A DNA stretch of 64,000 nucleotides from an uncultured Clostridia bacterium. Lineage in GTDB: Bacteria > Bacillota > Clostridia > TANB77 > CAG-508. A program made the position numbers and the translations under genes. The notes beneath the pieces were generated by a model. It saw only the letters and a program-made list of their open reading frames with translations, was not told the origin of the DNA and ran no database searches. Shown piece after piece: positions 14,232 to 57,277 of this stretch. Location: the NCBI GenBank assembly GCA_934119935.1, contig CAKOSX010000002.1:44294-108293 (forward strand), read 5' to 3'. Each line of letters opens with the position of its first letter. Positions within the stretch are counted from its first letter, which is position 1.

Positions 14232-14834
14232 ATGCGACCGTATATTGTTGAAATCTTGGGCACCCCCGAAGCGGGGAAAAGCACCAGCGTAAAAAACGTC
14301 AGACGAACGCTCTATGAGAAGGGCTACAAAGTCGGCTGGGTTCGTGAAGCTGGCGAAATCGTGCCTGATGCACTGAAAACGGGCAATGCATCAGGAAACG
14401 TCTGGATGACCATGAATGCACTTCAGGGCATCTGGGAAGAAGCCCATAGTGACCGAGACATTGTCTTGGTCGAGCGTGGGACGGTGGATGCTTCTTTCTG
14501 GAATCACTTGTACTCCAGTATGGGTGAGTTTTCGGAGGAAGAATGTTCAGCTTTTGAACACCTCTTCAAGGTACTCAAAGCTGAACCAGATTGCATTCTC
14601 TTTCTGACAGTTTCCGCAGAGGAAAGTATCAGACGGAGAGGTGGCGAGGGTCATCTTGTGACTAAAGCGTTCATTGAACGTTTTAACAACGAGATCAACA
14701 AATTCTTGCCTACGGTTCCCATAAAGCAGGAAATGCTTAATACTTGCGGTATGAGCACGTCGCAGGTACACGATTGGATGCTCGAGACGATTGAAAGTGG
14801 TTATTCTGCTTTCAAGACCCAGATGAAGGGTTAA
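14232..14834 (+). CDS. Deoxynucleoside kinase-like P-loop kinase (dNK/dGK family), horizontally acquired
   Basis: Walker A GTPEAGKST; ER(S)-like motif LVERGTVDASFW; Arg-rich lid SIRRRGGEG as in dCK/dGK; 200 aa, same size as Bacillus Dck/Dgk. GC about 50% versus about 30% for neighbours, with foreign codon usage (CTG, GGC, CGC); GGGAGG RBS. Confidence 0.6.
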   Translation: MRPYIVEILGTPEAGKSTSVKNVRRTLYEKGYKVGWVREAGEIVPDALKTGNASGNVWMTMNALQGIWEEAHSDRDIVLVERGTVDASFWNHLYSSMGEFSEEECSAFEHLFKVLKAEPDCILFLTVSAEESIRRRGGEGHLVTKAFIERFNNEINKFLPTVPIKQEMLNTCGMSTSQVHDWMLETIESGYSAFKTQMKG

Positions 14835-20826: not shown

Positions 20827-22242
20827 ATGGGTTCAAAAGACCGGCTCTACGCAGACATCATGGCTGTGCATCCAGAGGTAACTGGCTCATGCAATCTGGT
20901 TATTGTAAAACAGCCAGATAATAGCACGGTCAAATTTGTTGTTGATTGTGGCCTCTTTCAAGAGAGGCAGTACAGCAAGAACAATGAGAGTTTGCCTTTC
21001 ATCCCGGCTAACATCGATTTTTGTTTGGTTACGCATAATCATGTGGATCATGTTGGTCGCTTGCCTTTTATGGTGAGTAAGGGTTACAACCAAGAGATCT
21101 ATATGACTGAGACAACTGCAAAGCTCTTGCCTTTGGCTTTGGAAGATAGCTATAAGGTGCTAAGAGATGTTGCAAAACGGCAGAACCATTCGCCGTTGTA
21201 CAGCGAGAGTGATGTGTCCCAAACCATGAGACTGATTCATCCTTGCAAGTATAATGAGACTATCCAGATTCGCCCGAATATTAAGGCAACATTCTTTATG
21301 AATGGCCACTTGATGGGAGCTTCTAGCATTCTCGTTCAAATCAGTTGGGAGGGATACGAAACAATTAATTTGTTCTTTAGCGGAGACTACAACAACAAGA
21401 ACATGTTCTTTGATGTACCAGACCTTCCGGATTGGGTACTTGACCTTCCACTTACGTTGGTTCAGGAATCCACTTATGGAAACATGGACTCCTATGAGGT
21501 TACGAGCTGCTTTAAGCAGAATGTACTGAGGTGCCTCGAACATGGTGGTACGATTGTTGCACCAGTCTTTTCGCTGGGACGTTCGCAGGAAATTCTGTAT
21601 GAGGTTAAATGCATGCAGGACGATGGCTCTTTGGATGTAAATGTGCCGATTTATTTCGATGGAAAGCTTGGCATCAGATATACCACGCTTTACTTGAAAG
21701 ATGGACTGGACATCAAGGAAGATATGAAAAACTTCCTTCCGAAGAACCTTACCTTTGTGGACAAGGTTAATCGTGGCGAAGTCTTGACGAGTACTATGCC
21801 TAAGATTATCCTTACCACTTCTGGCATGGGATCGTATGGTCCTGCACAGGTGTATATTCCAGAGTATTTGACCAGAAGAAATTCGCTTATCCACTTCACG
21901 GGCTATACCACAGAAGGTACGCTCGGTGCAAGACTTAAAGAGGCTGAAGTCGGCACGGCAGTTCAGATTGGTGGTACGCTTGTTAAAAAGTATGCACAGG
22001 TCGAATACACCACCGAATATTCTGCTCACGCAAAGGCAGATGAGATGATTGACTTCCTCAAGAAGTTCAAACACCTTAAGTTGGTCCTTGTGAATCACGG
22101 AGAGGCTGATACAAAGCAAATATTTGCAGAAAGGATTATCAACGAAGTTGACACTGAAAGGGTCGGAATTCTGGGAAGTGGTTACTTCTTCCGTGTGAAT
22201 CACGAAGGCCTTATCAAGAGCCTGTCGACAAAATTCGAATAA
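20827..22242 (+). CDS. Metallo-beta-lactamase fold beta-CASP family nuclease (RNase J / CPSF-like), foreign GC
   Basis: HxHxDH motif THNHVDHVGRLP; beta-CASP motif A (QESTYG) and C-terminal His motif (YSAHAKADE); 471 aa; GC about 44% with foreign codon usage; GGAGG RBS. Confidence 0.75.
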   Translation: MGSKDRLYADIMAVHPEVTGSCNLVIVKQPDNSTVKFVVDCGLFQERQYSKNNESLPFIPANIDFCLVTHNHVDHVGRLPFMVSKGYNQEIYMTETTAKLLPLALEDSYKVLRDVAKRQNHSPLYSESDVSQTMRLIHPCKYNETIQIRPNIKATFFMNGHLMGASSILVQISWEGYETINLFFSGDYNNKNMFFDVPDLPDWVLDLPLTLVQESTYGNMDSYEVTSCFKQNVLRCLEHGGTIVAPVFSLGRSQEILYEVKCMQDDGSLDVNVPIYFDGKLGIRYTTLYLKDGLDIKEDMKNFLPKNLTFVDKVNRGEVLTSTMPKIILTTSGMGSYGPAQVYIPEYLTRRNSLIHFTGYTTEGTLGARLKEAEVGTAVQIGGTLVKKYAQVEYTTEYSAHAKADEMIDFLKKFKHLKLVLVNHGEADTKQIFAERIINEVDTERVGILGSGYFFRVNHEGLIKSLSTKFE

Positions 22243-22424: not shown

Positions 22425-22450
22425 GCAATTTGCAAAGGAGTTATATACAA

Positions 22451-23812
22451 ATGAAAAAAGTATTCGTTTTGAGGACGGAAGCTTTGTTGGCATCTAAGGA
22501 TCCGACTTTGAGATTTGGCGACGACAATACTATTGTTGTGCCTATGGCAATTCTCCAGAACCTTTATCGGTACAAGGGTGTGCCGGAAAAGATGAGCATG
22601 GCAAGTAGGTTCGTAGAGTATATCGACAGCCTTCCCCAGAATGATTTGCTTTCCGAGGAAGGCTTCAAGCAGGAAAACGGTAGTTACCTGCGCATTGTGG
22701 ATAATGGACCTATTGAGCAGGAAATTGCTAATTTGGCAGATTTTTCGCGGCTTGACCATAGAGTTTTCCAGGTTTGTAAGGATTTGAAGAAAAAGAGCAA
22801 AAAGGTTATCTTGATTTCTAGAAATCCGAATATCCGTCTGAAGGGCAATCAGCTTGGAATTGATACTGAGCTGTTTAAAGACGAGATTTTCCCTAAACCT
22901 TGTGATCAATATAAGGGGATAGTCGAAGTTTTCATGCCTGGGAGCTCACTGGAAAAAATGTTCACCGATGAAAGAGGAGTTCCTGTAGAGGAAGTGTACC
23001 AGTATGAAAATTTCGACTGGATTGAAAACGAGTTCGTCGAGATTGTCAGTGACACTTCTAAGGCCATAGGACGTTATACCAATGGACGAATTGTTCGCCT
23101 TAAGTATGACAAGAGCATCCCGGGAGGACATAAGGCTCTCAATGTAGAGCAGGTTGTATTCTGGGAATCCTTGCTTATGCCGCCTGATATAGCACCATTG
23201 GTTGTTACGAAAGGTGTTGCAGGTACCGGAAAAACCTATTGTTCTTTGGCAATGGCATTGAATGCGATTGAAAAGAAAGGGGACAAGAAAAAGCAGACAT
23301 ATAAGCAGATTATTGTTGCAACTCCCACTGTCACGGTGGCAAACGAAGAACTGGGCTTTTTGCCTGGTGAAATCGATGATAAGGTGGGCCCGTATCTCGG
23401 CGGTATTGTTGATAATTTGAAGGAGATTCTCAGACCGAAATTTCCGGATTTCACAAATGCTGAGCTGAAGAAGAAGGCAATGGAATTCTTCGAGAGAGGA
23501 GACATCGAAATTCAGCCGATTGGATTCCTGCGTGGTCGCACAATTCCGAACACGGTGTTTATCATCGATGAAACGCAGAATATAAAGCCGTGCGATATCA
23601 AGGACATTGTTACGCGTTCTGCCGAAGGTTCGAAGTTCATCTTCTTGGGAGACGCTGACCAGGTTAACAATCCCGCGCTTAATTCGCGCTACAACGGTTT
23701 GGTGTACCTGAGTGAAAAGATGAAAGGCAACCCGCATACCTTCCAGATTACGCTTAACAGCAAGAAGTCTGTTAGAAGCAAGTTGGCACAGGAGGCACTT
23801 GACATTCTCTAA
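22451..23812 (+). CDS. PhoH-like ATPase with N-terminal PIN domain (YlaK-like), foreign GC
   Basis: N-terminal PIN-like fold (KVFVLRTEALL...NTIVVPMAIL); C-terminal PhoH P-loop VVTKGVAGTGKT, LGFLPGEIDDKVGPYL, IDETQN; 453 aa from the ATG at 22451 (AAGGAG RBS); GC about 44%. Confidence 0.75.
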   Translation: MKKVFVLRTEALLASKDPTLRFGDDNTIVVPMAILQNLYRYKGVPEKMSMASRFVEYIDSLPQNDLLSEEGFKQENGSYLRIVDNGPIEQEIANLADFSRLDHRVFQVCKDLKKKSKKVILISRNPNIRLKGNQLGIDTELFKDEIFPKPCDQYKGIVEVFMPGSSLEKMFTDERGVPVEEVYQYENFDWIENEFVEIVSDTSKAIGRYTNGRIVRLKYDKSIPGGHKALNVEQVVFWESLLMPPDIAPLVVTKGVAGTGKTYCSLAMALNAIEKKGDKKKQTYKQIIVATPTVTVANEELGFLPGEIDDKVGPYLGGIVDNLKEILRPKFPDFTNAELKKKAMEFFERGDIEIQPIGFLRGRTIPNTVFIIDETQNIKPCDIKDIVTRSAEGSKFIFLGDADQVNNPALNSRYNGLVYLSEKMKGNPHTFQITLNSKKSVRSKLAQEALDIL

Positions 23813-37857: not shown

Positions 37858-40194
37858 ATGCCAAGGAAAGTAGTAAAAGGTACAACAGAAAACTTAAATA
37901 TGTTAAGAGAAAAAGTAGACTATATTGGTTTTGAACTAGGAAAGGTCCCAGAATTTTTAAAGGATTTTGAGCCACTTGAATATAGAGTACCAAAGGTTTA
38001 CGACGAAACTACATATAAAGTTTATAAGTACGTAAAAATAAAAGATATTGAAATATTAATCACACCAAAGGACAGACTAGATGATTTAGAGGAAAGGTAT
38101 AAACTTGCCAGCCCATTATTTACATATATGAAGCCAGAGGCAAACGAAAATCTTGAGAAGTATGCCTATTTTTTAAAAATGATAAATCAGACTAGGGTGT
38201 CAGATATTCAAGAAATAGAAAAGGAACAAGAAGCTTTTCAGAAAGAGATTCCATTTGATGTGAAATTTGCTAATAATTTTAAGTGGCAAATATTTTATTC
38301 TGATTATGCAGATAAATATTTTATGCTTGCTTCTACAAACGAAACAGACAATTCACAGATGTTTTATTTATTGAAAAGGAAGATTGAAGAGAATAAAAGT
38401 AAAAAGGAAAGTACTATTTTTGTGCCTATCAGTAATGAGGAATATTCTGAAGTAATATTAAAAAAATCAGAGATAGAGGATTTAGAAAATTATTTGTGGT
38501 TTTTCACTAAAAATTGGCCTTCTATATATGAAATAGAGGATGAAGATGGAAATATTCAGTTACAAATAGTTGGAGAGACTGTTATATACGACAAAATGAC
38601 AAGCCAATATAGAATTATTCTCAAAGATAAAAAGGAAGCTTCAAAATGCTATAAATTAATTAAAGCATTATTCATTTTAGCATATGATTTAAGAAAAGAT
38701 TATCAATTTCAAATAAAGATTGGTGAAAATGGTGGTCTGGATTTCTATTATAATGATGAAAAAATTGAATATGATACTCTACCAGAGTTCTTGAAGAAAG
38801 AGTCAATTTCCAAGATAAAAGAAAACGAGAGAGTTAAAACTGAGACTAAGGAAGTAAAAGCAGATATCAAAGATTTACAAAAGCAAGAAGAACAGAAGAA
38901 TCTTGAATATCTTAGAAAAGAGAAAGAGATTGTTACTTTCTTAGAGTGCAAGAAAACATTTATGGGAAGAATAAAATATTTCTTTAAGGGAAAGAAAGGT
39001 AAGAAAGACGAAGAAGTTTCGGAGCATTCTGCAAGTAAAGAAAGATTAAAGGATATTTTAAGTCAAGACAAAGAGAATATAGAACATTTTAAAGATGATG
39101 AATTAGAATCTAAGAGTTATACTGTTGAAGACATTATTAAAATTGGCAAAGAGCTTGATAATAATGTAAAAGACAACAAGAACGCAAAACTAGATCTAAA
39201 GGCTTTACAAAACAAGGTTGATAATATTGATAAAAAATTAAAGAATGCAACAGAGTTTTTAGAAGAGATAGATGAGCATAAGAAGAGTATATTCGAATTT
39301 TGGAAATATGCAAACAAAGATGAGTCAAAAATGCTTGCCGAAGGTGAAGTAGAAGAGGAAGAAACAACGAGCACAGGTCTTAGAAAAACCTTTGATTATG
39401 AAGAAGATATAGAAAATTTTGCAAGTAAGATAGATGGCCAACAAAGAGAAAAATTAACACATAAAGAACAAGACGCTCTGTTTGCATCAAATTTTGTACT
39501 AGATGGAATAAACATAGTATCAAAAGAAAAATTACTAAAAGATGATGAAAACAAGATAGCAAATTTATTACAACAATTAAAAGACGACTACAAGAAAGAT
39601 ATTGATAAAATTCAAGAAAAAGACTTTGATATTTTCGGAAATATCAGCCAAGACAAAACAAAGATAAAAACACTAAAAAATAATCAACATAGAGAAGCGG
39701 AAAAAGATAAGTACAAAGTTTTAAATGTAAATTTAAATACAGAAATGGATGTATTTATAGAAAAATTAAAAGAACTTAGACAAATTCTTATAGATGAATC
39801 TGAAAAGATAGAAGTTCCATATGATATATCTTTGTACAAGGCTAGCAACGAAAAGATTGATCCAGATGGATTTGATAAATTTAGCGTAAATCCATTCGAA
39901 ACTCTGGATAATTTAGAAAAAACTTCTACATCTAAAGAAACATATTTATATAAAATCAATGTTCCAGAAAATACAAAATTAGTATTTTATTCGAATATAA
40001 CATTCTTTGAAAATAACAACCAAACACTTCCTTTAGGAATGGACATATCTCAAGAAGGGCTTATAAACATGGATAAATACAAGCTTGAACTAAAAGGAAA
40101 AGACGAATTTAATATAAATATTTTCAAGAACGAATTCGATAATTTTGTAAAGAATGTTAAGGTTTATGAGTATGATTTAGTAAATAAAGATTAA
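37858..40194 (+). CDS. Large hypothetical protein (778 aa, highly charged, C-terminal half predicted coiled-coil)
   Basis: GGAGG RBS; no TM segments or recognisable catalytic motif; K/E/D-rich with long heptad-like regions. Confidence 0.6.
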   Translation: MPRKVVKGTTENLNMLREKVDYIGFELGKVPEFLKDFEPLEYRVPKVYDETTYKVYKYVKIKDIEILITPKDRLDDLEERYKLASPLFTYMKPEANENLEKYAYFLKMINQTRVSDIQEIEKEQEAFQKEIPFDVKFANNFKWQIFYSDYADKYFMLASTNETDNSQMFYLLKRKIEENKSKKESTIFVPISNEEYSEVILKKSEIEDLENYLWFFTKNWPSIYEIEDEDGNIQLQIVGETVIYDKMTSQYRIILKDKKEASKCYKLIKALFILAYDLRKDYQFQIKIGENGGLDFYYNDEKIEYDTLPEFLKKESISKIKENERVKTETKEVKADIKDLQKQEEQKNLEYLRKEKEIVTFLECKKTFMGRIKYFFKGKKGKKDEEVSEHSASKERLKDILSQDKENIEHFKDDELESKSYTVEDIIKIGKELDNNVKDNKNAKLDLKALQNKVDNIDKKLKNATEFLEEIDEHKKSIFEFWKYANKDESKMLAEGEVEEEETTSTGLRKTFDYEEDIENFASKIDGQQREKLTHKEQDALFASNFVLDGINIVSKEKLLKDDENKIANLLQQLKDDYKKDIDKIQEKDFDIFGNISQDKTKIKTLKNNQHREAEKDKYKVLNVNLNTEMDVFIEKLKELRQILIDESEKIEVPYDISLYKASNEKIDPDGFDKFSVNPFETLDNLEKTSTSKETYLYKINVPENTKLVFYSNITFFENNNQTLPLGMDISQEGLINMDKYKLELKGKDEFNINIFKNEFDNFVKNVKVYEYDLVNKD

Positions 40195-40263
40195 ATAGTT
40201 GAAGAATGATTACAATTTTGACGTAGCCGAAATTATGATTATTTGCCAACGGAAAGGAAAAGT

Positions 40264-41442
40264 ATGATAGATAGAGTAATCATAATGGTACTTGACGGCT
40301 TCGGTGTAGGAGAAGCTCCAGATGCAAACAAGTATGGAGATGAAGGAAGTGACACACTTGCTGGGATATACAATAATACGACTTTAAATATTCCAAACAT
40401 GGCTAAATTAGGACTATATAACATAGACGGAGTTAAGGTTGGAGAAAAACAAGAAAAGACAATCGGAGCATATGGAAAGGCACAAGAACAGGCTGATGGA
40501 AAAAATAGTCCAGTAGGGCATTGGGAGATGTCTGGTTATATTAAGCATCCAGCTTTTACAACATATCCAAATGCATTTCCTAAAAAGTTGATTGATGAAT
40601 TTATAGAGAAAACTGGTGTAAAAGGAGTTTTATGCAATGAAGTTGGCTCTGGAACAGAAATTTTAAAACGCTTCGGAGAAGAACACATAAAAACAGGATA
40701 TCCTATAATATACACATCAGCAGACAGTGTATTTCAAATAGCTGCTCATGAAGACGTAATTCCGGTTGAAAAATTATATGAGATTTGTAGAATTACAAGA
40801 AAAATTCTAGATAACCCAGAATACAATGTTGGAACTGTAATTGCAAGACCATTTGTTGGAGATAAGGCAGAAAACTTTACAAGAACGTACAATAGAAAAG
40901 ATTTTGAATCTAATACTTTTGGCAAAACAATGTTAGATGTAATGCATGAGAATGGTACAAACGTTGTAGCAATAGGAAAAATAGAAGATTTATTTAGTGG
41001 CAGAGGAATAGACAGTGCAATACACACAAACGGAAATGCTGATGGAATAGAAAAGACGATTGAAGAAATAAAGAAAGACACTAAGGGATTGGTATTTACA
41101 AACCTTGTAGATACAGACATGTTATATGGACATAGAAATAATATTGAAGGATATGCAAGAGCACTAGAATATTTTGATTCAAAATTACTAGAGATAATGA
41201 GCAACATGAAAGAAAATGATATGCTTATTATAACAGGGGACCATGGAAATGACCCAAGCACTCCAAGCACAGACCATTCTAGAGAATATACTCCAATATT
41301 GGTATATGGAAAGAATATAAAAGAAAATGTGAATCTGGGAATAAGAAGCACATTTGCAGATATTTCCGCAACAATATTAGATATGTTAAGATTACCCAAG
41401 CTTGAAAATGGTATAAGCTTTAGAAAAGAAATAGAAAAATAA
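40264..41442 (+). CDS. deoB: Phosphopentomutase
   Basis: MIDRVIIMVLDGFGVGEAPDA... alkaline-phosphatase-like metalloenzyme signature; TGDHGNDP. Confidence 0.88.
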   Translation: MIDRVIIMVLDGFGVGEAPDANKYGDEGSDTLAGIYNNTTLNIPNMAKLGLYNIDGVKVGEKQEKTIGAYGKAQEQADGKNSPVGHWEMSGYIKHPAFTTYPNAFPKKLIDEFIEKTGVKGVLCNEVGSGTEILKRFGEEHIKTGYPIIYTSADSVFQIAAHEDVIPVEKLYEICRITRKILDNPEYNVGTVIARPFVGDKAENFTRTYNRKDFESNTFGKTMLDVMHENGTNVVAIGKIEDLFSGRGIDSAIHTNGNADGIEKTIEEIKKDTKGLVFTNLVDTDMLYGHRNNIEGYARALEYFDSKLLEIMSNMKENDMLIITGDHGNDPSTPSTDHSREYTPILVYGKNIKENVNLGIRSTFADISATILDMLRLPKLENGISFRKEIEK

Positions 41443-42499: not shown

Positions 42500-43384
42500 A
42501 TGTTAGAGGAACTAAGACAATGTGAAGTTTGTCCTTTTAGATGTAAAGTAAATAGATTGGAAGGAAAAATAGGAAAATGTGGTTGTAATGATAAGATAAA
42601 AATTGCGTTAGCATCATTACATTATTATGAAGAGCCATGTATAAGTGGAAAGAATGGTTCAGGAACAGTGTTCTTTTCAAACTGTAATTTGAATTGTTTA
42701 TTCTGCCAGAATTATAAAATAAGTCAAGAAGGAAAAGGTAGAGAAATTACTATAGAAGAATTAGCAAATATCTTTCTAGAGCAACAAAAAAATGGAGCAA
42801 ACAATATTAATTTAGTAACTCCTACAATGTATGCATATCAAATAATAGAGGCTCTAAAAATTGCAAAGGGCAATGGTCTTAATATTCCAATAATATATAA
42901 CACGAATGGTTATGAAAATGTGGAAACAATAAGGGCATTAAAAGGCTATATAGATGTTTATTTGCCAGATTTAAAATATTATTCAGATGAAATTGCTATA
43001 AAATATTCGAAGGCACCAAATTATTTTAGTGTAGCTACAAATGCAATTTTAGAAATGATTAATCAGGTAGGAAATCCTGAATTTGATGAAAATGGAATGA
43101 TAAAAAGAGGAGTAATAATAAGACACTTAGTACTTCCAGGGCACATTCAAAATTCAAAACACATATTAAAATGGCTAAAGGAAAACGTAAATTCCAAAGC
43201 ATATGTTAGTGTAATGGCACAGTATTTTCCAACGTATAAGGCTAAAGAAGATAAATATTTAAACAGAAAATTAACAAACAAAGAATACTCAGAAATAGAG
43301 CAATATTTGTATTTGCTAGATATAGAGAATGGATATATGCAAGACCTTGGAAAACATGAGGAAGAATATGTTCCTGATTTTTAG
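42500..43384 (+). CDS. Radical SAM protein (PflA/PflX-like activase family)
   Basis: N-terminal Cys cluster CEVCPFRC...CGC and canonical CNLNCLFCQNY (CxxxCxxC); GGAGGAA RBS precedes the ATG at 42500. Confidence 0.65.
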   Translation: MLEELRQCEVCPFRCKVNRLEGKIGKCGCNDKIKIALASLHYYEEPCISGKNGSGTVFFSNCNLNCLFCQNYKISQEGKGREITIEELANIFLEQQKNGANNINLVTPTMYAYQIIEALKIAKGNGLNIPIIYNTNGYENVETIRALKGYIDVYLPDLKYYSDEIAIKYSKAPNYFSVATNAILEMINQVGNPEFDENGMIKRGVIIRHLVLPGHIQNSKHILKWLKENVNSKAYVSVMAQYFPTYKAKEDKYLNRKLTNKEYSEIEQYLYLLDIENGYMQDLGKHEEEYVPDF

Positions 43385-47042: not shown

Positions 47043-47351
47043 ATGGAAATTACAGAAGTACGTATTAAAAAAGTTAATTCAGGAAATAGAGTGAAAGCAG
47101 TTGCTCAAATAACATTTGATAATGAATTTGTTGTTCATGAAATCAAAGTTAAAGAAAAATCAGATGGAGAACTATTCATAGCTATGCCTAGCAGACAAAA
47201 AAATGAAAGACGTTATGATATAGCTCATCCTATTAATCAAGATGTTAGAGATAGAATAACAAAAGCTGTATTAGATAAATATGATGAGATTAAAGATTTA
47301 GAACCAGCTGAACCTAAAACAGAAACAGAATCAGAAAGTGATGCTGAATAG
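47043..47351 (+). CDS. spoVG: Septation protein SpoVG
   Basis: MEITEVRIKKVNSGNRVKAVAQITFDNEFVVHEIKV...IAHPIN is highly similar to the SpoVG consensus. Confidence 0.85.
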   Translation: MEITEVRIKKVNSGNRVKAVAQITFDNEFVVHEIKVKEKSDGELFIAMPSRQKNERRYDIAHPINQDVRDRITKAVLDKYDEIKDLEPAEPKTETESESDAE

Positions 47352-47354
47352 AAA

Positions 47355-47380
47355 ATACCCTTTATGGGTATTTTTTTTTT
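47355..47380 (+). terminator. Rho-independent terminator after spoVG
   Basis: ATACCC-ttta-TGGGTAT followed by a T10 run. Confidence 0.6.
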
Positions 47381-47391
47381 ACAAAAGTACT

Positions 47392-47424
47392 CCCCCGAGC
47401 CTTATAGATAGACTCGGGGGAGTA
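47392..47424. terminator. Perfect 10-bp GC-rich hairpin (terminator of the minus-strand small ORF)
   Basis: CTCCCCCGAG-ccttatagataga-CTCGGGGGAG, immediately downstream (minus strand) of the ORF stop at 47431. Confidence 0.5.
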
Positions 47425-47430
47425 AGGAGT

Positions 47431-47646
47431 TTAGTAGCAGCTTATTGTGGCCTTTTGACCAAACATCTCCGCCACATCCCTTATGGGGTTACCCGCATAT
47501 TCGGTGCTGTCTCGCACCACAATGTAGGTGCATCCACTCGGAGTGGACTCGGCTCTGAAGTCGTAGCCTTGCAGCAATCCCTTCTTCTGGGAATATTCTT
47601 TTGTTGCCACGCAAAGCAACCCTTTTCTAGTGATTTTACCAATCAT
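47431..47646 (-). CDS. Small hypothetical protein (71 aa), GC-rich foreign-looking ORF
   Basis: ORF MIGKITRKGLLCVATKEYSQKKGLLQGYDFRAESTPSGCTYIVVRDSTEYAGNPIRDVAEMFGQKATISCY; own promoter and AAGGAG RBS on the minus strand; GC about 50%; no recognisable family. Confidence 0.4.
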   Translation of the reverse strand: MIGKITRKGLLCVATKEYSQKKGLLQGYDFRAESTPSGCTYIVVRDSTEYAGNPIRDVAEMFGQKATISCY

Positions 47647-47684
47647 TTTTTTGACAACTCCTTTTTTATATTGGTGTAAAATTA

Positions 47685-47713
47685 ATTATAGCACAAAAAT
47701 GATGAAAATACAA
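47685..47713 (-). promoter_or_regulatory. Promoter (minus strand TTGTAT-17-TATAAT) for the 71-aa ORF
   Basis: Read on the minus strand: TTGTAT tttcatcatttttgtgc TATAAT, about 35 nt upstream of the RBS. Confidence 0.4.
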
Positions 47714-47842
47714 TAAATTCCAATAAAAAAGTAAAAAAAAGCCAATTGCAAAGCTTGTCGTAATTTGTATTATAAAATTCCTTGAAAAAATGTTGAATAA
47801 GTGCTATAATTAAAGAATGCCAATGAGAAAGGTGGGAGAACT

Positions 47843-48544
47843 TTGAAGCAGATAGATGAAATGAGAAAAAGTTATAACTCATTTATAGAAAGACAACGTA
47901 AGGGATATGAAATGACTGCTGCAATGGTTGGCTATATAATTGAAAGAATGCAAGAAGCAGGAATGATATCAGAAGATGTATGTATATGTGGAAGAATAAA
48001 GAGTTTTAAATCGGCGTATGAAAATACAGGAAAGAAAGCAGTAGATGATTGCTTTGGACTAAGAATAATGGGATCGAAGGAAGATCTAGAAAAAATTGAA
48101 CAAGAGTTAAGACAAATGCTTATAGTAGATATTACGAAGGATCATAGAAAAAAGAAAAACACGTCTTATAATGCTATACATGAAATGGTTCATATAAGAG
48201 CAAAATATATGGGGGATAGTGGAATTGAACCAGAAACTTTCCCAGAAATAGAAGTTCAATATTGGAATGATGAAGTAAGAGAAAAATGTGTAGATGGCGA
48301 ATTATCTTATGCAAAATATAAGAGCAAAGATTTATTGGATATAATTGAAAGACTAAATACAAATAGAGAACAAACATTAAATGATTTACCGGTATTCTAT
48401 GAAATTAAAGGAAGAGAGATAAAAAAATTATCAAAGTTAGCAACTTTATACAAAATGTATCCAGAAATAAGACAGATGGAAGAAAGAAGAATGCTGGCAG
48501 TAGATGCTTCAGACCAAGATATGGAAGATGCAGCAAATAGATAA
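47843..48544 (+). CDS. Small alarmone synthetase (RelQ/RelP-like GTP pyrophosphokinase)
   Basis: Synthetase-domain motifs CICGRIKSFKSAYENTGKK and DCFGLRIMG (RelA/SpoT NT domain); 233 aa; TTG start with AGGTGG RBS. Confidence 0.65.
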   Translation: MKQIDEMRKSYNSFIERQRKGYEMTAAMVGYIIERMQEAGMISEDVCICGRIKSFKSAYENTGKKAVDDCFGLRIMGSKEDLEKIEQELRQMLIVDITKDHRKKKNTSYNAIHEMVHIRAKYMGDSGIEPETFPEIEVQYWNDEVREKCVDGELSYAKYKSKDLLDIIERLNTNREQTLNDLPVFYEIKGREIKKLSKLATLYKMYPEIRQMEERRMLAVDASDQDMEDAANR

Positions 48545-48655: not shown

Positions 48656-48684
48656 TTGACATTAACCTTATTTGGGTATATAAT
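48656..48684 (+). promoter_or_regulatory. S10 operon promoter TTGACA-17-TATAAT
   Basis: Perfect consensus -35 and -10 with 17-nt spacer, about 290 nt upstream of rpsJ. Confidence 0.6.
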
Positions 48685-48977
48685 AGTAAAGCATGTAAGA
48701 TAGCGAAGAAGTGAAATGTGGCTACAACCATACAATTAACCAAGGTTGGAGGGAACTTTCATGGAGCATGTCATGGCTGAGACCAGGCGGTAAGGTTAAG
48801 GTATCCGTAAGAGATTTTGCGGGTAGCTTATGCATACTGAAAAGTATGTATTAATAAATGTACACTTTATCCCAAGATAATCATGCAAAAACTTGGGCTT
48901 TTATATTGGTAATATTTAGAACACCAGGGTGCGTTTATAACTTCCGACCAAAAAAATATTTAAGGAGGGAAAATTAC

Positions 48978-51021: not shown

Positions 51022-51255
51022 TTAAATAAAAATAGCGAGAGATAACTCGGATAATAAAAAATATCTGCTTATGCGGGGCAGGAAAAAAAGAATACGTAAA
51101 TAAATATAAATAAAGTAGAAAATTCAGCAAAAACGAGTAATGCTAGGAAAGTGAGCGAAAAAAACGGAGGTGTACGTATTGTACATTGAGTATTTTTGAA
51201 GCGAAACTTGACAAAGCAGGACGAAGTTTTTCATGAATTTGAGAAGGAGAATAAA

Positions 51256-52080
51256 ATGGCAACAAAAAAATTCAATCCAGTAACTCCATCATTAAGAAAT
51301 ATGACAGTTTCTGATTTTGCTGAAATAACAAAAAAGACTCCTGAAAAATCTTTATTAACAGTAAAGAAAGAAAAAGCAGGAAGAAATAGTTATGGAAGAA
51401 TAACAGTTCGTCACCAAGGTGGAGGAAACAGACAAAAATATAGAATAATTGATTTTAAACGTCAAAAAGAAGATATGCCAGCAACAGTAGTTGGTATAGA
51501 ATATGATCCAAACAGAAGTGCAAATATAGCTTTAATTAAATATGAAGATGGAACATTAAGCTATATATTAGCTCCTATAGGATTAAAAGACGGTGACACA
51601 GTAATGTCAGGAGCAAATGCTGATATTAAACCAGGTAACTGTCTAAAATTAGAAAACATTCCAGTTGGTACTATGGTTCATAACATAGAAATAAACCCAG
51701 GCCAAGGTGGAAAATTAGTTAGAGCTGCAGGTCAAGAAGCTCAACTTATGGCTAAAGAAGGAAAATTCGCAAATTTAAGATTACCTTCAGGAGAAATGAG
51801 ATTAATAATGCTAAACTGCAGAGCAACAATAGGAACTGTAGGAAATGCAGAATATGAAAATATTAAACTAGGTAAAGCAGGAAAAACAAGACATCTAGGC
51901 AAACGTCCAGAAGTTAGAGGATCTGCAATGAACCCAGTAGATCACCCTCATGGTGGTGGTGAAGGAAAGGCTCCAGTAGGACACGCAGGACCAATGACTC
52001 CTTGGGGTAAACCAGCACTTGGATACAAGACAAGAAAGAATTCAAGAACTGATAAATTTATAGCTAAGAGGAGGAAATAA
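51256..52080 (+). CDS. rplB: 50S ribosomal protein L2
   Basis: [17 protein letters not shown]...; GAAGGAG RBS; the tracked ORF extends 20 codons upstream with no RBS. Confidence 0.95.
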
Positions 52081-52082
52081 TA

Positions 52083-52361
52083 ATGTCAAGATCTAGTAAA
52101 AAGAAACCATTTGTTGCTCCAGAGCTATTAAAAAGAGTTGAAGCAATGAATGAAAGTGGAAAGAAAGAAGTATTAAAGACATGGTCTAGAGCTTCTACAA
52201 TATACCCACAAATGGTTGGACACACAATAGCTGTTCACGATGGAAGAAAACATGTTCCAGTATATATTACTGAAGAAATGATTGGACATAAATTAGGAGA
52301 ATTTGCTCCAACAAGAACATTTAAAGGACATTCAGGAGATAAAACAACAACTACAAAATAA
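52083..52361 (+). CDS. rpsS: 30S ribosomal protein S19
   Basis: Canonical S19. Confidence 0.95.
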
Positions 52362-52389
52362 AAATTGATTAAGGAGGTAAATAAGAGCA

Positions 52390-52755
52390 ATGGAAGATAC
52401 AGTACAAAACGAAGTAGTACCATGCGCAAGTGCAACTCTAAAGTATGCTAGAATTTCAAGCAGAAAAGTTAAGATTGTAGCAGATTTAATAAGAGGAAAA
52501 GATGTTGATGAAGCATTAGCAATAGTTAAATTTACGCCAAAAGCTGCATCAGAGATCGTTGAAAAATTGCTTAAATCAGCTATTGCAAACGCTGAAAACA
52601 ACCATGGAATGAAGAGCAATAAATTATATGTAGCAGAAATATATGCAAATCAAGGACCTACATTAAGAAGAATAAGACCAGCTGCAAAAGGTTCAGCTGT
52701 TAGAATTAGAAAGAGAACAAGTCATATAACTATAGTTCTTAAAGAAAGAGACTAA
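52390..52755 (+). CDS. rplV: 50S ribosomal protein L22
   Basis: [25 protein letters not shown]. Confidence 0.93.
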
Positions 52756-52776
52756 GAGTAAGGAGGATAATAGAAA

Positions 52777-53439
52777 ATGGGACAAAAAATGAATCCAAAC
52801 GGACTTAGAGTTGGAATCATAAAAGACTGGAACTCAAAATGGTATGCAGATTCAAAGCATTTTGCAGATTATCTAGTTGAAGATCACAAAATCCGTGAAT
52901 ATGTTAAGAAAAAATTATACGCTAGCGGAATTTCAAAAGTTGAAATCGAGAGAACAGCAAAATTCGTTAAAGTTAACGTATACACAGCTAAACCTGGTCT
53001 AGTAATAGGAAAAGGTGGAAATTTAGCTGAAAGCTTAAAAGCTGAGTTACAAAAAATGATTGGAAAAGATGTAAATCTAAATATTGTTGAGGTTAAATCA
53101 CCAGATTTAGATGCACAATTAGTTGCTGAAAATATAGCAGGACAACTAGAAAGAAGAATTTCATTCAGACGTGCAATGAAACAATGTATGCAAAAAACAA
53201 TGAAGATGGGTGCTTTAGGAATAAAGACATCTGTATCAGGAAGACTTGGTGGAGCTGATATGGCTAGAACTGAGTTCTACAAAGAAGGTACAATACCACT
53301 TCAAACATTAAGAGCTGACATTGATTATGGATTTGCAGAAGCAAACACAACATATGGAAAAGTTGGAGTTAAAGTTTGGATATATAAAGGAGAAGTTCTT
53401 CCAGCTAAGAAGAAAGCAGTGGAAGGAGGAGACAGATAA
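52777..53439 (+). CDS. rpsC: 30S ribosomal protein S3
   Basis: [24 protein letters not shown]; KH domain. Confidence 0.95.
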
Positions 53440-53882
53440 TGCCATTAATGCCAAAAAGAACAAAATATAGAAAACAACAAAAAGGTAGAAATAGAGGAAA
53501 AGCAACAAGAGGTAACGTTGTAACAGATGGATTATATGGACTTCAAGCATTAGAAGCAGGTCAAATTACTTCTAACCAAATAGAAGCAGCCCGTGTTGCT
53601 ATGACAAGATATATAAAAAGAGGTGGAAAGGTTTGGATAAAAATCTTCCCAGATAAACCTATAACAAAGAAACCAGCAGATACTCGTATGGGTAAAGGTA
53701 AAGGATCAGTTGAATACTGGGTAGCAGTTATAAAGCCAGGAAGAATATTGTTTGAGCTTGCAGATGTTACAGAAGACGTTGCAAGAGAAGCATTAAGACT
53801 TGCTGCTAACAAACTATCTGTTAAGTGTAAATTTGTTAAAAAGGAAACTGAAGTAGGTGGTGAATTAGATGAAGATAAATAA
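53439..53882 (+). CDS. rplP: 50S ribosomal protein L16
   Basis: [20 protein letters not shown]; ATGA overlap with rpsC. Confidence 0.95.
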
Positions 53883-54195
53883 GATTAGAGAAATGTCTTC
53901 ACCAGACTTAGAAAAAGAATTAGGAGAATTAAAATCAGAATTGTTCAAACTAAGATTTAGCTTAGCAACAAACGGATTAGACAATCCTATGAAAATAAGA
54001 GAAGTTAAGAAAGACATTGCAAAAATAAAAACAGTTTTAACTGAAAGAGAATTAAAAGGTGAAGAACCAGTAGTTGTAGAAGAGCCAAAGAAAGCAGAAA
54101 AGAAAACTGCAAGCAAGGCAAAGAAAGAAGCTACAGAAGGAACAGAAAAGAAAGCTAGAAAAACAACTACAAAAAAAGAAAGTAAAGCTGAATAA
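53869..54195 (+). CDS. rpmC: 50S ribosomal protein L29 with about 40-aa Lys/Ala/Thr/Glu-rich C-terminal extension
   Basis: [31 protein letters not shown]29 core; tail [35 protein letters not shown]; 14-nt overlap with rplP. Confidence 0.88.
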
Positions 54196-54245
54196 TTTAT
54201 ACAACTAAAACGTTGTATTCCTTAGAATGTAGAAAGGAGAATATT

Positions 54246-54509
54246 ATGGAAGAAAGAAATCTTCGTAAAACAATGACTGGAATTGTTACATCTGATAAAA
54301 TGGATAAAACAGTTGTTATATCTGTTGTACAAAATGAGATGGATAAGACATATGGAAAAATAAAGAAGAGAACATATAAATTAAAAGCTCATGATGAAAA
54401 CAACGAATGCAAAGTTGGAGATAAAGTTAAAGTTATGGAAACAAGACCTTTATCAAAAGACAAGAGATGGAGAGTTGTTGAGATCGTAGAAAAGGCAATA
54501 ATAAAATAA
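54246..54509 (+). CDS. rpsQ: 30S ribosomal protein S17
   Basis: [22 protein letters not shown]... ; GGAGA RBS upstream of the ATG at 54246. Confidence 0.93.
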
Positions 54510-54548
54510 TAAAACATTAAAGAATGAAAAAAGGAGGTACTAGTTTAA

Positions 54549-54917
54549 ATGGTACAGCAACAAACAGTATTAAAAGTAGCTGATAATACAGGTGCTAAAG
54601 AAATAATGTGTATTAGATGTTTAGGCGGATCATACAGAAAATATGCTAGCGTTGGTGATATAATAATTGCTTCTGTTAAAACAGCAACACCAGGTGGCGT
54701 TGTAAAAAAAGGCGAAGTTGTTAAAGCAGTTGTTGTTAGAACAAAGAAACCTATAAGAAGAGCTGACGGATCTTATTTAAGATTTGATGAAAACGCAGCA
54801 GTTATAATAAAAGATGATGGAACACCAAAGGGAACTCGTATATTTGGACCTGTTGCAAGAGAATTAAGAGAAAAGGACTACTTAAAGATTCTTTCTCTAG
54901 CACCAGAAGTTCTATAA
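54549..54917 (+). CDS. rplN: 50S ribosomal protein L14
   Basis: [27 protein letters not shown]. Confidence 0.95.
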
Positions 54918-54965
54918 TTGAGATAAGAGCCCAATAAGTAAGAAATAAAGAGGTGAAAATATAAA

Positions 54966-55274
54966 ATGAAATTAAGAAAAGGCGATACAGTTAAAGTTTT
55001 ATCTGGAAATGATAAAGGAAAAACTGGGGAAATTCTAGAAGTAATACCAAAAACAGAAAAAATAATTGTTAAAGGTATCAATATTAGAAAAAAGAGTGTT
55101 AAACCAAGAAGACAAGGTGAACAAGGAGGAATTATTCCTTCAGAATTCAGCATACATAGCAGTAAAGTAGCTCTAGTATGTCCAAAATGCGGAAAAGCAA
55201 CAAGAGTTGGATATGCAGTTGAGAAAGACGGAAAAGTACGTGTATGTAAAAAATGTGGAGCAAATATAAAATAG
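54966..55274 (+). CDS. rplX: 50S ribosomal protein L24
   Basis: KOW motif MKLRKGDTVKVLSGNDKGKTGEI; C-terminal Cys4 (CPKCG...CKKCG) extension. Confidence 0.93.
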   Translation: MKLRKGDTVKVLSGNDKGKTGEILEVIPKTEKIIVKGINIRKKSVKPRRQGEQGGIIPSEFSIHSSKVALVCPKCGKATRVGYAVEKDGKVRVCKKCGANIK

Positions 55275-55300
55275 TGAAGGAAGGAGGTCTATAAAGACTT

Positions 55301-55840
55301 ATGGAAATATTAAAAGAACAATATGAGAAAGAAATAGTACCAGCTTTAATGAAAAAGTTTAATTATAAATCAGTAATGGAAGTTCCAAAGTTAGATAAAA
55401 TAGTTATCAACATTGGTTTAGGAGATGTAAAAGAAAATCCAAAGGATTTAGAGAACGCAATCAAAGATTTGGAACAAATTACTGGACAAAAGCCAATAAC
55501 TACAAAATCTAAGAAGGCTATAGCTGCATTTAAATTAAGAGCAGGAGTTCCAATTGGATGCAAAGTAACATTAAGAAAAGGAAAAATGTATGATTTTGCA
55601 AACAAATTATTCAATGTAGCTCTTCCAAGAGTTAGAGACTTTAGAGGAATACCAGCAGATTCTTTTGACGGTAGAGGAAACTATTCAATGGGTATTAAGG
55701 AACAATTAATATTCCCTGAAATAGAATACGAAAAAGTTGATAAAGTAAGAGGTATGGATATAATATTTGTAACAACAGCTAAGACTGATGAAGAAGCTAA
55801 AGAGTTACTAAAATTATTAGGAATGCCATTCAAAAACTAA
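55301..55840 (+). CDS. rplE: 50S ribosomal protein L5
   Basis: Canonical L5. Confidence 0.95.
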
Positions 55841-55884
55841 TTATCGTAAATTACTGAAAAGAGATATAAGAAAGGAGAAAGCTA

Positions 55885-56070
55885 ATGGCTAAAACGTCTT
55901 TAAAAGTTAAGCAAGCAAGACCACAAAAATATAAGACAAGAGAATATAACAGATGTAAATTATGTGGAAGACCACATGCTTATATTAGAAAATATGGAGT
56001 TTGCCGTGAGTGCTTCAGAAAATTAGCTCATGATGGCGAAATTCCTGGAGTAAAAAAGGCAAGTTGGTAG
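55885..56070 (+). CDS. rpsZ: 30S ribosomal protein S14 type Z (zinc-binding)
   Basis: 61 aa; [22 protein letters not shown]. Confidence 0.93.
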
Positions 56071-56127
56071 AATCCAATTAAAATTGTATATGATAGAAAA
56101 ATCGTGATAAGGAGGGAAAACAAGAAC

Positions 56128-56529
56128 ATGGTTACTACAGATCCAATAGCAGATATGCTAACAAGAATAAGAAATGCTAGCAGTCAAAAACATAAATCTG
56201 TTGATGTTCCTGCTTCAAAAGAAAAGCTTGCAATAGCTCAAATATTATTTGAAGAAGGATATATCAAATCTTTTGAAGAAATAAAAGAAGAAAATAATCA
56301 AGGTGTAATAAGAATTACATTAAAATATACAGAAAAAGGTAAAAAAGTAATAGATGGATTAAAGAGAATAAGCAAACCAGGATTAAGAGTTTACGCATCT
56401 AAGACAGAATTACCTAAAGTATTAAATGGATTAGGAATAGCTTTAATTTCAACATCTAAAGGAATAATGACAGACAAGAAAGCAAGAGAAGCTGGTTTAG
56501 GTGGAGAAGTTATAGCATACGTTTGGTAA
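56128..56529 (+). CDS. rpsH: 30S ribosomal protein S8
   Basis: [17 protein letters not shown]; AAGGAGGG RBS upstream of the ATG at 56128. Confidence 0.93.
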
Positions 56530-56559
56530 TAATTAAGACAAGAAGGAGGGAAAACAAAC

Positions 56560-57099
56560 ATGTCAAGAATAGGAAATATGCCTATTACAGTACCTGCTGG
56601 TGTTGAAGTTAAAATAGACGGAAACCACATTGCTGTAAAAGGACCTAAGGGAAGTCTTGAAAGAGACATTCATCCAAATATGAAAGTTGAATTAGACGGA
56701 AATGAAATAAAAGTTTCAAGACCAGATGATACAAACATGAATAAGAGTTTACATGGAACAACAAGAGCTTTAATACATAACATGGTTGAAGGTGTTGTTA
56801 ATGAATTCAAAGTAGAATTAGAAATAAATGGTGTTGGTTACAGAGCTCAAAAGCAAGGTAACAAATTAGTAATGAGTTTAGGATATTCTCATCCAGTAGA
56901 GATGGAAGCTCCAGAAGGAATTACTTTTGATTTAACAGATGCTAACCACATTGTAGTTAGAGGAATTGACAAAGAATTAGTTGGTCAAGTTGCTAACGAA
57001 GTAAGATCTAAACGTCCACCAGAAGTATATAGAGGAAAAGGTATTAAATATGCTACTGAACATATTAGACGTAAGGAAGGTAAAGCAGGTAAAAAATAA
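56560..57099 (+). CDS. rplF: 50S ribosomal protein L6
   Basis: MSRIGNMPITVPAGVEVKIDGNHIAVKGPKG. Confidence 0.95.
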   Translation: MSRIGNMPITVPAGVEVKIDGNHIAVKGPKGSLERDIHPNMKVELDGNEIKVSRPDDTNMNKSLHGTTRALIHNMVEGVVNEFKVELEINGVGYRAQKQGNKLVMSLGYSHPVEMEAPEGITFDLTDANHIVVRGIDKELVGQVANEVRSKRPPEVYRGKGIKYATEHIRRKEGKAGKK

Positions 57100-57277
57100 T
57101 TCTAAACTTCGTCTAACAGCGTTAACCTTTGCCTAAAAATATTATCAACGTACAACTTAGTACGCCTCAAATATTTTGGGCACGGTTGCCTTGTTATACT
57201 AGTTTACGATTATTTTACTATGAGTCGAAATCAGAACTAAAACTAATGCTGTTACATTAGTTAGAAAGGAGTAAAAA

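Follow-up and report, generated by a model that had tools for sequence, protein, structure and literature searches.

In the hok-type and aapA1-type type I toxin messenger RNAs (mRNAs), translation is inhibited by fold-back, in that the paired 5' and 3' ends hide the ribosome-binding site. The staphylococcal agr and the pneumococcal comC are multi-allelic specificity loci, and they are bounded by conserved flanks. Here we describe a small gene that can be compared with both groups. It lies on the minus strand of a 64,000-nt stretch of DNA from an uncultured Clostridia bacterium (GenBank assembly GCA_934119935.1, contig CAKOSX010000002.1, positions 44,294 to 108,293 of the forward strand), and this whole stretch is called the window below. 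The gene encodes a protein of 71 amino acids (aa) and sits between spoVG and a RelA/SpoT-type small synthetase gene. Two further described systems are relevant to it. In the icaR mRNA of Staphylococcus aureus, the 5' untranslated region (UTR) and the 3' UTR base-pair with each other (PMC3868564). The toxic small alarmone synthetase (toxSAS) modules are defined by a conserved bicistronic, often overlapping, toxin-antitoxin operon (PMC7229694), and the antitoxin fold of the ATfaRel2/pZFD type is beta1-beta2-alpha1-beta3(-beta4-alpha2) with a YXXY motif (PMC11782079).

We consider that the element is probably a monocistronic small-protein gene of an undescribed ferredoxin-like family, with a structured mRNA in which the Shine-Dalgarno (SD) sequence and the 3' UTR form a panhandle, and that it is a recombining multi-allelic cassette. 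A small-protein gene with 3'-UTR control is already known in kind, and so is a multi-allelic cassette. The new points are the SD:anti-SD panhandle, the maintenance of a GC-rich and over-structured coding sequence, and the deep mosaic allelism within species.

The transcription unit and the predicted pairing of its ends

The original prediction had reported a GC-rich patch in AT-rich DNA, carrying a 71-aa open reading frame (ORF) on the minus strand between spoVG and the RelA/SpoT-type synthetase gene. We observed both. The GC content of the window is 0.319 (31.9%) overall, and it is 0.48-0.54 across 47400-47620 (counted in 100-nt windows) as against 0.12-0.36 in the flanking ones. The ORF is found at 47431..47646 (-), and its translation is identical to the one given earlier. 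One neighbour is spoVG (PF04026, E=2.7e-30), and the other encodes a RelA/SpoT-type small synthetase. The parts of the gene are as follows, in the direction of its transcription.

47685..47722, minus strand: promoter, with a conserved upstream TTGGAATT, a -35 element, a 17-nt spacer, an extended -10 TG and a -10 element
47647..47678, minus strand: predicted 5' UTR, including the Shine-Dalgarno AAGGAG (47663-47658), placed from the sequence and from the putative transcription start
47431..47646, minus strand: coding sequence of the 71-aa protein (MIGKITRKGLL...ATISCY), assigned from the ORF, the homologues, the coding signature, the predicted fold and a GC content at third codon positions (GC3) of 0.57
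47424..47429, minus strand: anti-Shine-Dalgarno CUCCUU in the 3' UTR, one base past the stop and complementary to AAGGAG, assigned from conservation and from pairing in the minimum free energy (MFE) structure
47381..47424, minus strand: intrinsic terminator from the terminator scan, with the hairpin UACUCCCCCGAG...CUCGGGGGAGUA (47424-47388) and then CUUUUGU

The promoter had been described as a near-consensus TTGTAT-17-TATAAT. It is present, with TTGTAT at 47713-47708, a 17-nt spacer, TG at 47693-47692 and TATAAT at 47690-47685. The perfect -10, to which the extended TGn motif is added, and the spacing agree with that description, but the -35 matches TTGACA at only three of six positions, and the site is absent from the promoter-scan list. 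The pattern TATTGTATTTT-N9-TGTGNTATAAT occurs once in the window, as compared to 0.03 occurrences expected. The promoter is kept in all the related species compared (at least 6) and is invariant within the window species. What makes it strong is the -10 element with its extension, along with this conservation. Furthermore, promoter, SD and terminator are all kept across species in which the flanking gene is only 57-68% identical in protein. Transcription would start about 7 nt downstream of the -10, and the AAGGAG lies 11 nt upstream of the ATG.

At the other end of the gene, the perfect 10-bp hairpin that had been noted after the stop was recovered, with its arms CTCCCCCGAG/CTCGGGGGAG at 47422-47413 and 47399-47390. 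The terminator scan gave 15 pairs over 47424-47388, followed by CTTTTGT; in the window species, the U-tract that follows is a weak one. In 14 sequences every position of the terminator stem is paired (100%), and there is one compensatory change, of a G-C to an A-U pair. Taken as a unit, the strong and conserved extended -10 promoter would give a monocistronic transcript of about 290-300 nt that stops at a strong hairpin terminator. We also observed that the spoVG terminator (+) and the small-gene terminator (-) converge with a few bases between them (window 47354-47424). Since the two terminators are convergent and nearly touching, any spoVG read-through would be antisense to the small gene.

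The AAGGAG had been taken for a plain ribosome-binding site. The motif itself is confirmed at 47663-47658, but this reading had missed its pairing with the CUCCUU of the 3' UTR. We observed an anti-SD (CUCCUU, UCCUU, UUCCUU or UCCU) between the stop and the terminator in 16/16 homologous transcripts, and AAGGAG pairs with it in the MFE structure. The probability that the SD GGAG is paired was 0.75-1.00 in 14/14 transcripts. For the window transcript this probability was 1.00, and 0.99 of it was with the 3' UTR spacer. When 11 other genes of the window were used as a control, the mean probability of SD pairing was 0.36, and none of them reached 0.75. In the alignment, 86.6% of the SD-helix cells were paired; for the SD helix and the terminator together the figure was 94.3%, as compared to 46-71% when the 3' partners were slid by 1-3 columns.

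Because the SD pairs with the CUCCUU past the stop (in some species also with a CCUUCUUUU tail), the transcript is predicted to close into a 5'-3' panhandle. Pairing of the SD may lead to low translation and/or a stabler mRNA, and might in this way gate the output of protein post-transcriptionally. The gate could be released, for instance, when the 3' end is trimmed, when an RNase cleaves the mRNA or when the pairing melts.

The small gene and icaR are alike in having a C-rich anti-SD in the 3' UTR against the SD of their own mRNA, so that in each case a monocistronic transcript is predicted to pair its 5' end with its 3' end. However, the 3' UTR of icaR measures several hundred nt, whereas only 6-15 nt separate the stop from the terminator in the small gene. 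The small gene also differs in that its whole coding region is GC-rich and structured, and the encoded proteins are unrelated. By analogy, the pairing in the small gene may have a translational or RNase III effect of the icaR type.

A comparison with the type I toxins suggests another explanation, in which the gene is toxin-like and a locked, hok-style fold-back mRNA holds back a harmful small protein until 3' processing frees it. The small-gene mRNA and the hok and aapA1 mRNAs are indeed alike in being stable and compact, with predicted end pairing over the ribosome-binding site. This pairing, the strong promoter and the highly structured mRNA, together with the likeness to hok and aapA1, speak for such a gene. 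The protein, however, is predicted to be a soluble, folded alpha/beta domain of the ferredoxin-like type, and not a hydrophobic membrane peptide. There is also no evident antisense RNA gene, as no plus-strand promoter is positioned to drive one and the plus-strand promoter-like sites of the promoter scan all face the synthetase gene. The locus, moreover, is a fixed chromosomal one in several species and is not associated with any mobile element. A type I toxin gene is therefore highly improbable here.

Coding capacity, codon composition and protein family

The ORF had been described as an orphan. This holds in so far as no described family contains it, but relatives do exist. A word-indexed search gave four close alleles of 71-72 aa, all in frame. 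An exhaustive HMMER search of 1.84 billion representatives gave six true relatives only, all of 68-71 aa, and a profile search gave 66 clusters (90% identity), whose full-length members measure 65-72 aa; all of these are from metagenomes or metagenome-assembled genomes (MAGs), and none is named. The frame is kept across the four close alleles and the 66 clusters. The same ORF is present at the same place in the loci reached via the neighbouring gene, which are from Clostridium sp. CAG:245 and related MAGs. A search for it in other genomes had been proposed, and it was found next to spoVG in every species examined. A scan of metagenomes with the promoter pattern gave 120 matches, mostly by chance, and 17 additional loci with the ORF, including three truncated or frameshifted copies. 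The copies in L072, P0061, P0066 and P0067 are frameshifted or cut short near the C-terminus, and may be pseudogenes or products of misassembly.

In 7 homologues of several species, the ORF has a GC3 of 0.47-0.59, as against 0.08-0.20 in the neighbouring genes, and the window median is 0.18. The anomalous composition that had been pointed out is thus seen both in GC and in GC3. The minus strand folds with an MFE of -105.9 kcal/mol (z=-6.27 against dinucleotide shuffles). We further estimated the folding of the coding sequence against permutations of synonymous codons that preserve the protein and the codon usage. The mean z values were as follows.

Small gene and homologues: -2.31 (n=13)
Ordinary AT-rich genes of the window: -0.48 (n=22)
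Three other GC3-rich genes of the window: -1.54 (n=14 segments)

In silico, the synonymous sites of the ORF are maintained at a high GC content, and the mRNA has a more stable fold than its synonymous permutations. As synonymous sites are saturated between alleles, the high GC3 must have been maintained and does not come from a recent donor. The three other GC3-rich genes (GC3 ~0.50-0.53) lie at 14232-14834 (+), 20827-22242 (+) and 22430-23812 (+), and encode a P-loop kinase-like protein, a beta-CASP metallo-beta-lactamase RNase and a PIN-PhoH protein; they may be a special class of genes, or foreign.

Since the minus strand folds strongly and the other frames are also stop-poor at the patch in the window sequence alone, a non-coding RNA (ncRNA) was a fair suspicion, and the original prediction had raised it. 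The comparative data decide against it. The frame of the ORF is the sole stop-free frame in 14/14 homologues. Substitutions are concentrated at third codon positions, the one indel is in frame, and the ratio of nonsynonymous to synonymous substitution rates (dN/dS, Nei-Gojobori) is 0.03-0.33. This pattern argues that the patch is a protein-coding gene under purifying selection, and not an ncRNA. A 113-aa antisense ORF on the plus strand was also evaluated as a candidate and was rejected, as it has stops in most homologues.

Searches of Rfam agreed with this. At the gathering threshold, the whole window gave only two tRNAs, both elsewhere. Over 47300-47800 at E<=10 there were only chance matches of 9-22 bits, as against gathering scores of 43-141, and in five related loci nothing was found at the element; on both strands, the patch was likewise without a match. 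The Infernal/Rfam scan, in which a known ncRNA would have spoken against the gene, therefore returned none on either strand. The idea of a structured ncRNA was abandoned on these grounds, together with the absence of an internal structure common to the subfamilies and the substitution pattern of a translated gene.

A related explanation is that the transcript is primarily a structured regulatory RNA. In this case the ORF would be fortuitous, or the mRNA would have a dual function in which its C-rich 3' end (CUCCUU, CUCCCCC) targets the SD regions of other mRNAs. The patch is GC-rich and strongly folded, promoter and terminator are better conserved than the transcript body, and the C-rich motifs presumably resemble the seed regions of Firmicute small RNAs. 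Yet neither the window nor the five related loci contain an Rfam family on either strand, no internal helix is kept across subfamilies, and the conservation at the protein level, the dN/dS and the frame-specific openness point to translation. A regulatory RNA is very unlikely on these grounds, and its purely non-coding version appears, from the comparison of homologues, to be essentially excluded.

The protein had no match in Pfam, NCBIfam, PHROGs, PADLOC or the PDB sequence search. Profile searches had been proposed; those against PDB, Pfam, NCBIfam and PHROGs matched no family, and the protein stays as unplaceable as it had been said to be. The library searches thus bear out the proposal of an independently transcribed small-protein gene outside any described family. 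AlphaFold2, run on an alignment of 37 sequences, gave a model with a predicted local distance difference test (pLDDT) of 86.2 and a predicted template-modelling score (pTM) of 0.70. Its order, beta-alpha-beta-beta-alpha-beta, is that of a ferredoxin-like fold. On this model, the product is predicted to be a small cytoplasmic protein of 66-72 aa with a ferredoxin-like fold. Its undescribed family is confined to a few AT-rich gut Clostridia, which form a narrow clade and have Clostridium sp. CAG:245 among their relatives.

The beta-alpha-beta-beta-alpha-beta fold is a very common one, and the small protein shares it with the ACT, PII-like (PstA/SbtB), CutA and NikR C-terminal domains. However, the sequence signature, the T-loop and the Gly-rich beta1-alpha1 loop of the ACT and PII-like domains are not seen in the small protein, which at 71 aa is too short for a T-loop and has no known ligand motif. 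Structural matches to the model had sequence identities of 1-17%. When per-site entropy was mapped on the fold, it was slightly higher in the helices, and no clear variable surface patch was seen.

Allelic diversity and the origin of the cassette

We compared the window with L001, a metagenome contig that has the gene order of the window. Over 6 kb in 100-nt bins, the two are 97-100% identical, as against 73-82% in the ORF. When the comparison was made over 18 kb, the two ORF bins were the second and third lowest of 176. No variation is seen in the promoter, the terminator, the initial 17 nt of the ORF or its last ~12 nt. A second species showed the same. Between L009 and L078 or L037, the ORF is 59-75% identical and the flanks, from a few hundred nt outward, are 96-100% identical; between L037 and L086, the downstream flank is 99% and the ORF 61% identical. 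Within species, the identity of the ORF is 59-85% overall, and that of the flanks 98-100%. Between species, the ORF is 58-67% and spoVG-murC 83-88% identical. The flanking genes have a synonymous divergence (dS) of 0.05-0.07. In the ORF, dS is 0.3-0.8 among the alleles of the window species, and it is saturated among those of the second species.

Strains with the same allele differ by 0-0.46% in the ORF and by 0-1.8% in the flanks. As they vary no more in the ORF than in the flanks, there is no ongoing hypermutation. We also considered a target of a diversity-generating retroelement, and hypermutation in general, and rejected both: the 64-kb window has no second copy (template-like repeat), the substitutions are of all types with a third-position bias and are not confined to adenines, and the alleles are stable; no search was aimed at a reverse transcriptase gene.

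The set of proteins is visibly mosaic. At L013, the cassette is exactly absent, with the junction ...ATTTTACGACA|CAAAAAAATACCC..., and L010 carries at that place ~370 nt with promoter, ORF and terminator. These alignments show a discrete cassette of ~370 nt with several old, mosaic alleles per species, which recombine between invariant flanks. A conserved box TGTCGTAA / TGTCGGAA (TTTACGACA on the opposite strand) forms the left edge of the cassette insertion site. It lies at window 47756-47763 (+), just upstream of the synthetase promoter, is present at the same place in L009, L010, L012, L013 and L014, and resembles a Spo0A 0A box. Low-identity bins were also seen elsewhere. Against L142, bins of 0.48-0.89 lie at window 40145-40345 and 42745-43045, where a 778-aa ORF ends and a 399-aa ORF starts, and within a 299-aa ORF.

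A phage-derived moron or other foreign DNA had been offered as one origin of the patch. More generally, it could be recently acquired foreign DNA (a phage moron or a mobile cassette) that has its GC content from the donor. The composition is foreign to the genome, the ~370-nt cassette is precisely present or absent, and other GC3-rich genes are in the window, all of which would be expected of such DNA. But no relatives were found in IMG/VR, among INPHARED phages or among PLSDB plasmids, and there was no PHROG match. The small gene, moreover, keeps one chromosomal position, beside spoVG, in all the species examined, with an AT-rich promoter and UTRs like those of the host, and the high GC3 recurs in each of them. 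A GC3 of ~0.5 despite saturated synonymous sites must, in addition, have been maintained. A recent foreign origin is hardly credible in the light of these points.

With agr and comC, the small gene shares discrete, deeply divergent and recombining alleles of a short segment in near-identical genomes. It differs from them in that it lacks a secretion signal and has no receptor or processing gene next to it that co-varies, and its dN/dS is well below 1. Balancing or frequency-dependent selection may preserve the diversity of the alleles, acting on some interaction whose partner varies. A bolder version, which we offer tentatively and regard as rather doubtful, is that of a hyper-polymorphic small-protein cassette of a kind not recognised before, with a conserved ferredoxin-like fold. 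Its old mosaic alleles would be kept in each species by frequency-dependent selection (for example as a phage-sensing or phage-targeted factor, or as a determinant of strain recognition), and it would be gated by the 5'-3' panhandle mRNA with selected GC-rich synonymous sites.

The neighbouring synthetase gene and the weight of the evidence

The gene on the other side of the promoter is a possible partner.

47843..48544, plus strand: divergent neighbour encoding a 233-aa RelP/RelQ-like small alarmone-synthetase homologue; possible partner

The small protein might be an antitoxin or regulator of this synthetase homologue in a toxSAS-like module, in which it would bind the enzyme and block its nucleotide site; both genes would then be variable through an arms race with phages. 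In most genomes, the small gene and the synthetase gene lie side by side and are divergent. The neighbour has the fold and the conserved catalytic motifs of a RelA/SpoT-homologue (RSH) synthetase, as the toxin domain of a toxSAS has. Known antitoxins are small and non-homologous between groups, and ATfaRel2 has 73 residues (PMC7229694, PMC11782079). ATfaRel2 and the small protein are alike in being compact alpha/beta proteins of ~70 aa, encoded beside a small RelA/SpoT-homologue synthetase gene in an AT-rich gut Firmicute. In addition, the synthetase gene of the CAG:245-type species also has two alleles, with 80% protein identity and near-identical flanks.

The organisation of the genes does not fit such a module. 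The small gene and the synthetase gene are on opposite strands, ~195 nt apart. Each is a divergent unit with a promoter and a terminator to itself, and there is no bicistronic operon. Their co-occurrence is loose: L013 and L012 have the synthetase gene but not the small gene, and L140 has the small gene but no synthetase gene adjacent to it. The alleles of the two genes assort freely, with A+1, A+2, B+3 and B+1 all seen. Among strains of the window species, the synthetase is 98-100% identical, as against 68-83% for the small protein.

The proteins also argue against it. The predicted beta-alpha-beta-beta-alpha-beta topology, and the absence of YXXY from every member of the family, are unlike ATfaRel2 (PMC11782079). 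The PDB profile search with the small protein gave no match to 8PU2, and there was no PADLOC match. The model of the synthetase is nearer to RelP/RelQ than to FaRel2. We regard the antitoxin as the main rival, possible though unlikely, and weakened at the sequence level by gene organisation, co-occurrence and allele assortment. The toxin, antitoxin and immunity roles that the original prediction had named are all still candidates, the antitoxin one a weakened candidate.

Some further observations were made around the synthetase gene. Between L009 and L037/L061, at ~200-1000 nt upstream of the small ORF, the synthetase alleles have 69-86% DNA identity, and the flanks 97-100%. The two CAG:245-type synthetase alleles assort independently of the small-ORF alleles. 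In L140 (3754-3826), the order is RNase J, a tRNA gene, the small ORF and spoVG, with the tRNA gene and RNase J replacing the synthetase gene. Beyond the synthetase gene, window 48684-48849 is a patch of ~45% GC in the leader upstream of rpsJ (S10 operon), without an Rfam match, and it may be an unmodelled ribosomal-protein leader.

Several points weigh against our proposal of a panhandle-forming, multi-allelic small-protein gene. The transcript and its translation are predicted from sequence, with a putative transcription start. The SD:anti-SD helix is almost invariant, and support from covariation is thus weak. In the CAG:245-type transcripts, the predicted partner of the SD is split between the 3' UTR spacer and the CCUUCUUUU tail past the terminator. 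RNAalifold, used on codon-aware and MAFFT alignments, found no internal helix common to the subfamilies; beyond the SD pairing and the terminator, only one or two tiny hairpins remained. High GC3 and better-than-permuted folding are also seen in three other genes of the window (mean z -1.54), and because these are alike, part of the ORF composition may reflect a class of genes or a foreign origin, and not a structure particular to this mRNA. As to the alleles, the r-protein operon of L143 (window 51254-57116) is only 88% identical to the window, as against 99.5% for L142. This difference points to large mosaic imports in the lineage. Since mosaic imports occur elsewhere, some of the divergence could be due to recombination by itself, with no balancing selection involved. 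Finally, with dN/dS below 1, the protein shows no direct sign of diversifying selection.

The practical value of these findings is modest for now. If our reading is true, the locus would be a compact natural case of 3'-UTR/Shine-Dalgarno pairing within a whole mRNA of ~300 nt. It would also mean that an island of high GC in an AT-rich genome is not necessarily an ncRNA, and that the codon bias of a translated gene can yield to selection on the structure of its mRNA. For the uncultured human-gut Clostridia, the gene would add a new, unannotated small-protein family, and its sharply bounded multi-allelic locus would mark an interaction at the level of strains, for example with phages, competitors or a nucleotide-signalling enzyme.

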